A stretch of DNA of 33,630 nucleotides. Origin: a virus. Taxonomy: Duplodnaviria; Heunggongvirae; Uroviricota; Caudoviricetes. Made by a program: the position numbers. This document shows, piece after piece, positions 18,001-21,000 of this stretch. The stretch is from the IMG/VR virus record IMGVR_UViG_2534681675_000029, positions 1 through 33,630 of that record. One strand, given 5' to 3'. How positions within the stretch are numbered: position 1 is the first letter of the stretch; every line of letters starts with the position of its first letter.

Positions 18001-21000
18001 TATGAGGCGCGTTTTGACCATCTTCGTCTGATTATTGAGCAAAATAATTTATATGTGGCCGGGTTCGTTAATACGGCCACAAATACTTTCTACCGTTTTT
18101 CAGATTTTACACATATATCAGTGCCCGGTGTGACAACTGTTTCCATGACAACGGACAGCAGTTATACCACGCTGCAACGTGTCGCAGCGCTGGAACGTTC
18201 CGGAATGCAAATCAGTCGTCACTCACTGGTTTCATCATATCTGGCGTTAATGGAGTTCAGTGGTAATACAATGACCAGAGATGCATCCAGAGCAGTTCTG
18301 CGTTTTGTCACTGTTACAGCAGAAGCCTTACGGTTCAGGCAAATACAGAGAGAATTTCGTCTGGCACTGTCTGAAACTGCTCCTGTTTATACGATGACGC
18401 CGGAAGACGTGGACCTCACTCTGAACTGGGGGAGAATCAGCAATGTGCTTCCGGAGTATCGGGGAGAGGATAGTGTCAGAGTGGGGAGAATATCCTTTAA
18501 TAATATATCAGCAATACTGGGTACTGTAGCGGTTATTCTGAATTGCCATCATCAGGGGACGCGTTCGGTTCGCTACGTGAATGAAGAGATGCAACCAGAA
18601 TGTCAGATAAGTGGCGACAGGCCAGTTATAAAAATAAACAATACATTATGGGAAAGTAATACAGCAGCAGCCTTTCTGAACAGAAAGTCTCAGTCATTAT
18701 ATACAACGGGTGAATGAAAGGAGTTAAGCATGAAGAAGATGTTTATGGCGGTTTTATTTGCATTGGTTTCTGTTAATGCAATGGCGGCGGATTGTGCTAA
18801 AGGTAAAATTGAGTTTTCCAAATATAATGGGGATAACACATTTACTGTAAAGGTTGACGGGAAAGAATACTGGACTAACCGGTGGAATTTGCAGCCGTTG
18901 TTACAAAGTGCACAGTTAACAGGAATGACCGTAACAATCAAATCCAATACCTGTGAATCAGGCTCTGGATTTGCTGAAGTGCAGTTTAATAATGACTGAA
19001 GAATAACCTGATTCGTGGTATGTGGGTAACAAGTGTAATCCGTGTCACTATTCAGTCAGTTGACAGTTGCCTGTCAGACTGAGCATTTGTTAAAAAAATC
19101 TCGCATGGTGAATCCCCCTGTGCGGAGGGGCAATCAGCAAGTAGGTATATGGGATAATTGCGGATTCAGGTGCTGATACTGAATTCACCGGGAGGCACCC
19201 GGCACCATGCAGGTAAGCAGTGTAAATGTTTACATAAGCAAATCCCCTCACCGGAGGGGATTTTTTACGCCCAAAAATTCCGCGTATGGTGTTGAGATTG
19301 AAAGCCTGGTGCTGGAAATAAATGCACCGACATCATAATAAAAAAACGCCAGCACAGAAGAGAACGGGAAAACGAGTCTGACGCTGGCGTGGGGATATTC
19401 CCCGTGGAGAAATGATATGTAACACATATCGGGAGTATTTTTATATAAAAATGATAACCATTGTCAATCATAACGGTCAGGAATGATGACGTTTATGCAT
19501 CAGAGCCATCAGTAATTAACGGGTGGCTTTTTTATTGTTGTCAGCTTCCGGATAACGGGAGACGGGGTATGTACCAGATGGAAAAAATCACAACAGGTGT
19601 GTCATACACCACGTCAGCGGTGGGGACGGGATACTGGTTACTGCAGCTGCTGGACAAAGTCTCTCCGTCCCAGTGGGTGGCAATAGGCGTGCTGGGGAGT
19701 CTGCTGTTTGGTCTGCTGACGTATCTGACGAACCTGTATTTCAAAATTAAAGAAGACCGGCGTAAGGCGGCGCGGGGAGAGTAGACGATGAACCATGAAG
19801 AAATGAATCAGCGCATAAGTTGCCTGGAAAATGAAATCACTGAACTGAATAAAAAACTGTCGGTGCTGATGGTTTCTGAAGATGAAAAAAACGCCGCGAT
19901 GAGCAGGAAGCAGCGTTTTACGATGATTGCATCAAAATTGCTCGCAGGACCTTTGCGAAGATTTTGCAGGAAAAGTTTTTACCGACCGCATTGTCAGAAA
20001 AGTACTCCATTACAGTTAAAAGTGCCGGAGAGGAAGGCAATAAACGTTATTTTATTGCGTCTGCACCGGATAAAGACCAGGCATGGGGGGGTAATCGGCC
20101 ATCTTTTATTGTGACAAGCGATGACTGGAATATCACGATCCGTGAAGATGGAAAAGTAACACCAGCATCGCACCAGCACAGTGAGGCGCTCATTGAATTT
20201 GCCATTGATTACCTGAAGAACAATAAAAAGCAGGGACTAATGAAGCGCATTGGTCGTTGCATGGGATATCTGCAGGTAGCTGCTGAGATTGAAGCGCTGG
20301 CCAGTGGTGCGGACAAGGATGCAGTTGTGCGGGAGGCTCTTCTTCGTGATTTTGATAATCCACCCTTTAAAAAAGTGCCTGCTTACTGGTTTCATCCAGG
20401 ACTGACTTATCTTAAAGGACGTATATAAGCTGGCTCGTTATCTGTTGCCGGATAATCGACGGAAGATGCGTTCTTTTTGTGATTTGGCGTAATGATGATC
20501 CCACTCACATTCAAGGTAGTTTAATTCTTCGTTTAACCAGTCATTTATATTGTCTTTCAGACGTAGAAGCATGGCTGGTGTTAATATTCTGGACATAATG
20601 TCGAGAGTTGGTGGTGTGAGGTGTCCATACGGTTCAGCCTGAATGGATTTTACTGCTTTGTGGTTTTGCTGAATGAGTTTAAGGAATGCTGATTTAAATT
20701 GTTCATTCATGGCCTGCATGCAGGCGGTATATTTATGTTCATCGTTATACATTGCTAAATCCTCGACGGGAATTGTCAGATATATTTCAGCCATCAGGTA
20801 AAACACCAGTGCCCACCACTGGCGGGCTGAAGACTTAACATATCCAGGGATTCGGAACCGATAAATCCTGATAAATATCCATGAACACCAAAATCAAATA
20901 CGGTCTGTCGGCTGCCGTTCTGGCGCTGATTGCCGCAGGTGCGCCTGCGCCTGAAATCCTCGACCAGTTTCTGGATGAAAAGGAAGGTAACCACACCACG

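Follow-up and report, generated by a model that had tools for sequence, protein, structure and literature searches.

Proteins made by a prophage and held in check by a gene of the opposite strand have been described in two systems that are the closest to the locus reported here. In phage JBD26 of Pseudomonas aeruginosa, the lysogen is defended by Tab, a protein of 83 amino acids (aa) whose minus-strand gene has a promoter of its own within the late operon, and anti-Tab, the product of an adjacent plus-strand late gene that is always found with Tab, binds Tab and is needed for the phage to escape from its own defence (PMC10884400). In Staphylococcus aureus phage 80alpha, the prophage-expressed immunity protein Tha is inhibited after induction by Ith, encoded by an overlapping antisense gene (PMC11087260). 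A third term of comparison is provided by the lambdoid morons, such as HK022 srb/gp23 (with gp22), ES18 gp25 (with gp24) and HK97 gp15, which are extra DNA of deviating guanine-plus-cytosine (GC) content lying on the opposite strand between late genes (PMC3594210). The gene analysed here, which we designate B, shares the features listed for morons and is located on the minus strand of a 33,630-nucleotide (nt) stretch of DNA (IMG/VR record IMGVR_UViG_2534681675_000029, positions 1 to 33,630; hereafter, the window) that is an Stx2-converting lambdoid prophage. It lies between the holin gene S and the endolysin gene R, convergent with a late-strand gene designated A (Table 1).

The likeness to Tab/anti-Tab concerns a small minus-strand gene of no known family (83 aa in Tab, 104 in B) that lies in a late operon with a promoter of its own, predicted in the case of B, next to a constant plus-strand late gene that can exist and act alone, the pair being dispensable for phage growth. 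The core of this architecture, a minus-strand gene with a constant late-strand neighbour, was found in all the B loci examined. On the other hand, host and phage type differ, the Tab slot is between terminase genes and that of B between holin and endolysin genes, and the defence by Tab, its tape-measure target and its binding by anti-Tab have been shown experimentally, whereas B and A are likened to them by architecture. With Tha/Ith the locus would share an antisense partner that balances immunity against autoimmunity, but in the former the RNase Tha, of the HEPN type, is activated by tail proteins, and the small antisense gene encodes the inhibitor, whereas in the A/B pair the small antisense gene is the candidate lysogen-expressed partner; no HEPN domain was found in B. 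As for the lambdoid morons, HK022 srb and ES18 gp25 have a 5' leader homologous to that of B as well as a convergent partner gene, but their cargo proteins are unrelated to B (the covariance model R1 described below matches the leader only, and the cargo families do not cluster), the slot of B is the lysis cassette and not the tail genes, and HK97 gp15 is a membrane superinfection-exclusion protein, in contrast to the predicted soluble B. We propose that B may be the cargo of an antisense moron, driven by a conserved leader and expressed in the lysogen as a defence protein, with A as its late antidote, and we assign to this model as a whole a probability of roughly 45%.

The length of the open reading frame (ORF) of B is unremarkable by itself, since the minus strand of the window contains 31 ORFs that reach 100 aa or more (15 within 17-33.6 kb), and several or many of these are shadows of plus-strand genes. 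By comparison of alleles and homologues, B is nonetheless a conserved protein-coding gene under purifying selection. Nine alleles from phages and genomes, with 77-94% DNA identity, contain neither indels nor stop codons; their pairwise ratios of nonsynonymous to synonymous substitution rates (dN/dS) are 0.24-0.58, and their differences are distributed over codon positions 3, 1 and 2 as 813, 600 and 336. The frame of B has the lowest dN/dS of the six frames in most pairs, and in the others the complementary frame that shares its third positions is equal or slightly lower. A search of a collection of 5.8 billion proteins with B rendered 22 clusters, all from Escherichia coli, and a profile search of 1.84 billion representatives rendered 20 proteins at E<=0.001; the gene has a constant length of 104-105 aa, and remote members, at 26-45% identity, still have 105-107 aa. 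No plus-strand gene overlaps B that could account for this conservation. The sequence-only reading of the window that preceded this analysis had made its case depend in part on the ORF being conserved in related phages, and it is indeed kept in phages 86 and 12E129 as well as in prophages. That the ORF could be a chance antisense open frame or a decayed remnant coding for nothing might be argued from the abundance of antisense ORFs of similar length in the window and from the lack of a promoter call in a generic scan, but such a reading is already effectively refuted by the pattern of selection (dN/dS below 1 only in the B frame and its third-position-sharing complement, in alleles free of stops and indels) and by the profile matches in a region that no plus-strand gene overlaps.

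The ORF first noticed at this position comprised 122 aa, from a GTG at 20806 to the stop at 20438. That ORF is present, but the likely coding region is 18 codons shorter, extending over 20438-20752 on the minus strand and encoding 104 aa from ATG 20752. This assignment is based on the good placement of a GAGGA Shine-Dalgarno sequence, on the fact that the 54 nt between GTG 20806 and ATG 20752 are broken by 1-nt indels or an in-frame stop in homologous loci, and on the location of the GTG within a conserved stem, where it makes up the final three bases of the 3' arm (20811-20804) of the hairpin described below. In addition, inspection of the sequence showed no Shine-Dalgarno upstream of GTG 20806 or ATG 20794, and in the alignment most homologues have 104 aa and begin at the Met corresponding to ATG 20752. 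The placement of the ORF among plus-strand lysis genes holds for the flanking S and R, but the immediate neighbour is A, which is uncharacterised and no known lysis gene.

The predicted B protein, of 12.4 kDa and pI 7.8, is hydrophilic (grand average of hydropathy, -0.76) and devoid of membrane segments (the highest Kyte-Doolittle value in a 19-aa span is 0.94); no signal peptide, lipobox or hydrophobic N-terminus was found in its sequence. An AlphaFold2 model shows five helices, with a predicted local distance difference test score of 87 and a predicted template modelling score of 0.82, so that B would be a soluble all-helical protein. Residues G43, W72, E76, Q92 and K93 of B are invariant. 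Its sole family match is phrog_1853, a family of unknown function (E=1.9e-46; residues 13-121 of the 122-aa ORF on profile positions 51-158/159). The early remark that no domain could be recognised agrees with the lack of any match in Pfam (nothing at E<=0.1), NCBIfam and PADLOC (2023); a sequence search of the PDB gave a best E of 0.33, a Foldseek search of BFVD with the model gave nothing at E<=0.001, scans of genome contigs rendered nothing useful, and of three protein scans of viral contigs two were without result. Serum resistance, which had been suggested as one phenotype to look for, is unlikely for a soluble protein with neither signal peptide nor membrane segment and with no match to Lambda_Bor (PF06291) or to any other Pfam family; phage exclusion, the other suggestion, would be the phenotype that best fits the architecture of the gene. 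Like B, lambda bor, which is expressed in lysogens, is a minus-strand gene at the lysis end of the late operon, where it is also found in phage 86, but Bor is an outer-membrane lipoprotein linked to serum resistance, B is in a different slot, and identity with Bor was discarded because B has no Pfam match at E<=0.1 and no hydrophobic N-terminus. Two other candidate identities were also rejected: a type II toxin-antitoxin pair, since the genes are convergent and not co-transcribed and neither A nor B contains toxin or antitoxin domains, and an immunity protein of the pore-forming-colicin type, in which orientation is similar but B has no membrane segment.

The evidence that connects B to A comes from their constant association. 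Gene A encodes an N-terminal coiled-coil and a conserved C-terminal domain of ~100 aa with the motif ...HxHSE...IGRCMGxLQVAAEIE...DFDNPPFK...W..PG..YLKGRI, of which the stretches GRCMG...LQVAAEIE and DFDNPPFK contain the invariant residues. B is convergent with this C-terminal domain, or with a remnant of it, in all the loci examined, which comprised those of phage 86, 12E129, GB089, C227-11, A34, OkiPb01712, 2012EL-2448 and ML775, a 45%-identical homologue in an IMG/VR contig, three more distant homologues in assemblies, and Salmonella prophages that were reached via A. The stop codons of both genes are 9-20 nt apart (9 nt in the window) or overlap by 33 nt. The adjacency holds also where the N-terminal half of A differs, this half being a coiled-coil, a DUF1327/YdfR domain or a Salmonella-specific domain, and it holds at different locations, since the pair occupies the S-R slot in E. 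coli and is found upstream of the holin gene in Salmonella and in two other contigs. DNA encoding the C-terminal domain of A is present in 787 E. coli genomes, as against 95 for B, with about 690 genomes containing A without B. Conversely, B without A was found only as the result of decay of A (locus L009, and the frameshift in the window), and no B locus was found that lacked both A and a remnant of it. Two loci with A only, L151 (1170-1248) and L022 (4624-4690), keep the last 13-20 nt of B (...G-N-R-stop) joined to R-proximal sequence at a CCG(G)ATAA microhomology, and this fused remnant indicates that they arose by deletion of B together with its leader.

Some observations concern A itself. 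In C227-11 (L004 2685-3491) and A34 (L005 3096-3489), RefSeq/PGAP labels A as an incomplete pseudogene ('YdfR family protein' and 'hypothetical protein'); this is wrong, since intact ORFs of 268 and 129 aa, respectively, are present. The A of phage 86 is fused to a DUF1327 domain, which the partner gene of ES18 also contains. The E. coli K-12 DUF1327 protein YdfR is reported to bind the catalytic half of RNase E and to co-purify with RNA (PMC13232886), which may bear on the role of the late-strand partners.

Upstream of B, the loci share a nearly invariant element, located ~50-85 nt from the ATG and consisting of TCAGCCCGYCAGTG, a loop of 4-8 nt and CACTGRCG, with a second invariant motif, GGCTGA, further downstream. 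This element is kept in nearly all B loci, even at ~40% protein identity, the distant exceptions being L009, which lacks it, and L015, with a different hairpin at the same spot. A scan of IMG/VR for the hairpin pattern found it in at least 120 contigs, with 69 unique variants of one architecture among the matches listed. In these, the order is TAnnnT, 6-7 nt, UCAGCC, the hairpin P2, a short variable linker, a further hairpin (hairpin 3, AGAGG...CCUCU) with the invariant loop AUGGCUGAUUA, AAGGA and the ATG of the cargo gene. The covariance model R1, for which 61 leaders of other cargo genes were used and the E. coli B-type copies left out, gave one significant match in the window, 20737-20832 on the minus strand (41.8 bits, E=1e-11; the next had E=0.44). 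Pairing of P2 amounts to 99.8% of cells over the 61 distinct leaders, covariation there being limited by design, given that the pattern used in the search put constraints on P2. At one P2 position U.G prevails (43 of 61, with C-G in 10 and U-A in 8); the opposite strand would have an A.C mismatch at this point, which assigns the structure to the cargo-sense RNA. For hairpin 3 the paired fraction of cells is 81.7%, with changes on both sides in four of its six pairs and many G.U pairs; it is degenerate in the window copy, which has two non-standard pairs there. The minimum-free-energy fold of the window leader forms P2 and also P1, the pairing of UCAGCC with GGCUGA, with a z value of only -1.5 relative to mononucleotide shuffles. 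No Rfam 15 family was found at the leader, and the hairpin sequence had no match in the literature text searched.

A scan anchored on the leader identified a putative promoter whose predicted transcription start (T/C 20830/20829) falls on the first bases of the leader and whose -35 element is separated from the start codon of R by 16 nt. Over 81 unique upstream regions, conservation of the -10 positions T-12, A-11 and T-7, whose distance from UCAGCC is fixed, reaches 80% or more at each of the three. Other interpretations of the hairpin were considered and rejected. A scan called it an intrinsic terminator (20800-20827), but the U-run is found only in E. coli B alleles and the canonical leaders continue with CACUCA; in that sub-lineage, the UUUU-followed hairpin might be an attenuator. 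The sequence ATGGCTG is not the start of a conserved upstream ORF, since ATG is replaced by CTG in 12E129-type alleles, frames differ, and there is no E. coli Shine-Dalgarno. A dimeric operator is disfavoured by the variation of the loop between 4 and 8 nt and by the U.G pairs, which point to RNA. Canonical cassettes contain, on the late strand just past the leader, a GC-rich hairpin with a T-run resembling the terminator annotated in ES18; this late-strand terminator is absent in the window, where R occupies the position.

The cargo found behind this leader comprises at least 23 small-protein families that are unrelated to each other, B included, with sizes of 57-169 aa and mostly of 65-100 aa. 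Among the matches listed, 137 of 143 leaders are followed by a callable open ORF, and most of the aligned cargo genes have an AAGGA/GAGGA-type Shine-Dalgarno and an ATG at the expected distance. Ten cargo families were scanned: the sole Pfam matches were DUF1883 and an aspartyl-protease-like domain, and seven of the families match PHROGs of unknown function and three match none. The annotated cargo genes include HK022 srb/gp23 ('moron gene product'), convergent with gp22, ES18 gp25 ('possible moron'), convergent with gp24, which encodes a DUF1327 protein, and HK633 gp65. A prophage of an O178:H19 strain (2012C-4431, L026 1164-1530) contains in the same S-R slot the same leader with an unrelated cargo of 95 aa (phrog_10490), which adjoins A and a DUF1327 fragment. 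Among the unique cassettes listed, a convergent ORF is found near the cargo stop in 84 of 86 (median gap, 11 nt) and the large surrounding ORFs are mostly on the opposite strand in 78 of 86; an MTLEQRVEALE-type helix forms the N-terminus in 28 of the 81 unique partner ORFs listed, others have DUF1327, and the C-termini are variable. The result is a mosaic in which a hypervariable middle is enclosed by conserved ends.

It could be therefore that the leader is a previously undescribed structured RNA acting as a portable platform for the expression and regulation of at least 23 families of small antisense genes in the late operons of enterobacterial lambdoid phages, each of them forming with its partner a defence/antidote pair of the Tab type, a generalization that we regard as doubtful in this full extent. 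If it were true, the cassettes would represent a large reservoir of prophage defence and counter-defence proteins, findable by searching for the leader: a 28-nt core and the covariance model retrieve dozens of unrelated antisense late-operon genes, nearly all with a convergent partner, and this would be a cheap way of mining proteins of phage-phage conflict in E. coli and Salmonella prophages. B alone would be another uncharacterised moron of an Stx phage; the leader is the part that specialists might not expect.

The sequence-only reading had taken the ORF for a moron expressed in the lysogen. Of the features given for morons by Juhala et al. (2000), as far as they are summarised in PMC3594210, extra DNA is present, since the inserted segment is missing from the commonest phage-collection matches of the S-R region, which cover 47% of the query, and base composition deviates, with a GC content of 0.39-0.42 over 20300-20900 as against 0.52-0.57 over R. 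A promoter was not called by the generic scan, and the anchored scan gave a weak one (TTTATC-17-TATGTT); as for the terminator, no hairpin with a U-run was found in the 190 nt past the B stop on the minus strand. The moron interpretation thus stands as regards architecture (extra DNA, low GC, presence/absence polymorphism, deletion scars) and the homology of the leader to those of the annotated morons HK022 srb/gp23 and ES18 gp25, but not as regards an own terminator. The extra DNA, the low GC and the leader homology support the view that B is the cargo of a moron-type cassette inserted antisense in the late lysis operon. B is rare. The phage collection contains it in 4 of 50,697 records, which correspond to two distinct phages recorded twice each, Stx2 phage 86, where it is already deposited as a hypothetical protein (orf6), and Stx2_12E129; of 5,426 complete E. 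coli genomes, 95 have it, among them those of the O104:H4 strain C227-11 and of 55989. The 44-75 bp directly upstream of R have matches in 2,211 of the 5,426 genomes. A wide distribution of the hairpin without cargo, which the R-proximal 65-75 bp in these genomes had seemed to indicate, was dropped, since in an O157:H7 locus homology ends just before the hairpin.

According to the model in which B is a prophage defence protein, B would be transcribed from the weak sigma-70-type promoter in the 128-bp gap before R, as an mRNA that would begin with the conserved stem-loop, given the position of the predicted start, and that would be translated from ATG 20752. Since the unit is oriented against late transcription from pR', the repressed prophage would be the state in which it is active; upon induction, Q-antiterminated late transcription would collide with that of the unit, and the late mRNA, complementary to its transcript over the whole length, would pair with it, so that the unit would be silenced. 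By analogy with Tab/anti-Tab and Tha/Ith, B would interfere with incoming phages, and A, made only with the late genes, would bind and neutralise B through its C-terminal domain. The phage would thereby escape its own product, and phages carrying A would escape lysogens carrying B. Architecture and co-occurrence suggest this model, from which expression of B and blocking of phages are predictions, and it would explain the asymmetry by which A is frequent by itself, no B was found without at least a remnant of A, and deletion removed B but spared A. Several observations weigh against it. In the window, B is intact next to a frameshifted A, whose reading frame is broken into the ORFs 19788-20114 and 19964-20428 because one nt is missing from a poly-A run (A7 at 19885-19891 vs A8 in GB089); this difference may reflect genuine loss of function, an error of homopolymer sequencing or a site prone to slippage. 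Under the model, such a phage should inhibit itself on induction, unless the A7 is a sequencing error, slippage bypasses it or the prophage is defective. In L009, likewise, A is degraded and the B homologue intact. Furthermore, no defence or toxin family matches A or B (PADLOC included), all the cargo families are functionally uncharacterised, P1 is invariant in the 61 leaders and is thus without support from covariation, the promoter of B is weak and a generic consensus scan did not call it, no terminator is evident 3' of B, and, with stops 9 nt apart or overlapping, the constant adjacency of B and A could be plain physical linkage.

It can also be the case that B is a stand-alone moron, such as a regulator or a modifier of host physiology, whose benefit to the lysogen has nothing to do with A. 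This would be in line with the intact B next to a damaged A, with the dispensability of B, which has been lost by deletion, and with the use of the same leader for cargos of unrelated families, whose neighbours vary and can be tail genes or a glycosyltransferase gene. Plain linkage would explain the adjacency of B and A, but not its persistence across deep divergence (26-45% identity) and relocation upstream of the holin gene, in spite of phage mosaicism; together with the failure to find B without A or a remnant, this makes the stand-alone reading rather unlikely. Immunity genes of pore-forming colicins are antisense and lie between the toxin gene and the lysis gene, and an analogous relation can be envisaged in which A, expressed late and polymorphic in its C-terminal domain, acts as an effector or toxin against which B, made from a constitutive antisense promoter, is the cognate immunity protein or antitoxin. 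B always accompanies the C-terminal domain of A whichever the N-terminal module, the genes are convergent or overlapping, and shared N-terminal modules with variable C-termini beside variable cargo recall polymorphic toxin/immunity loci. Nevertheless, about 86% of the E. coli genomes with the C-terminal domain of A lack B, and in at least two loci A was left alone by a deletion of B, whereas a toxin is not normally kept after loss of its immunity, so that the asymmetry between A alone and B alone would not be explained; A has no secretion, translocation or receptor-binding region, B lacks the membrane segment of pore-forming colicin immunity proteins, and toxin or antitoxin families gave no matches. 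We consider such a toxin/immunity relation improbable. Finally, the antisense RNA could itself be the functional product, damping leaky expression of the holin and late genes in the lysogen, with an incidental ORF. With no terminator after B the transcript should run on into A and S, the leader is far more conserved than any cargo, and the cassettes almost always oppose late operons; but purifying selection on the B frame, the 104-107 aa kept down to 26% identity, the Shine-Dalgarno and ATG of most cargos, the ORF that follows nearly all the leader matches listed, and the confident fold prediction for B make this very improbable. Whichever the function of B, its place is shortly after the toxin genes in the late unit transcribed with stx2, where it faces the transcription for toxin and lysis, so that any antisense effect on the expression of S, A or R would bear on toxin release.

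Table 1. Features of the window around B and of its late region (positions in the window)
Feature	Position	Strand	Remarks
Gene B	20438-20752	-	104 aa plus stop (likely start); phrog_1853 member
Shine-Dalgarno GAGGA	20764-20760	-	7 nt upstream of ATG 20752; kept in all E. coli alleles
18-codon N-terminal extension of the sequence-only reading	20753-20806	-	part of the 5' untranslated region; coding not conserved
Structured 5' leader	20753-20832	-	match to covariance model R1; conserved
GGCUGA	20792-20787	-	complementary to UCAGCC
Hairpin P2, CGCCAGUG-GUGGG-CACUGGUG	20824-20804	-	
UCAGCC	20830-20825	-	5' motif of the leader
Putative sigma-70-like promoter	20837-20865	-	-35 TTTATC 20865-20860, 17-nt spacer, -10 TATGTT 20842-20837; anchored scan
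Gene A (phrog_1085)	19788-20428	+	convergent late-strand partner of B; PHROG match E=7.6e-85 for the 3' ORF
Holin S, P21 class II, 71 aa	19569-19784	+	PF04971, E=2.7e-32; phrog holin; upstream flank of the cassette
Endolysin R (lysozyme)	20881-21414	+	PF00959, E=1.3e-24; downstream flank of the cassette
Two transfer RNA genes	17414-17486, 17591-17664	+	directly 5' of stx2A
stx2A	17758-18717	+	upstream in the late region
stx2B	18730-18999	+	after stx2A
STnc100 small RNA	19074-19272	+	Rfam, 147.6 bits; between stx2B and the holin gene
Rz-type ORF	21893-22360		identity from position and from the Rz annotated in phage 86 only
Terminase-like ORF	from 23996		putative assignment

Other features of the window deserve mention. 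Two minus-strand ORFs, 20835-21218 (127 aa) and 21488-22069 (193 aa), are larger than that of B; they are antisense to R and to the region preceding the Rz-type ORF, and are presumably shadows of plus-strand genes. The early region contains, at 9011-9565 on the plus strand, two tandem pairs of isrK and C4 antisense RNAs (Rfam RF01394 and RF01695). Between the Rz-type and the terminase-like ORFs, the region 22550-23900 is AT-rich (GC content, 0.32-0.41) and holds a 70-aa ORF on the minus strand (23389-23601), which may be a second antisense moron, given that its position and strand are like those of YlcI/YnfO-family genes of related prophages (L004 6056-6241).

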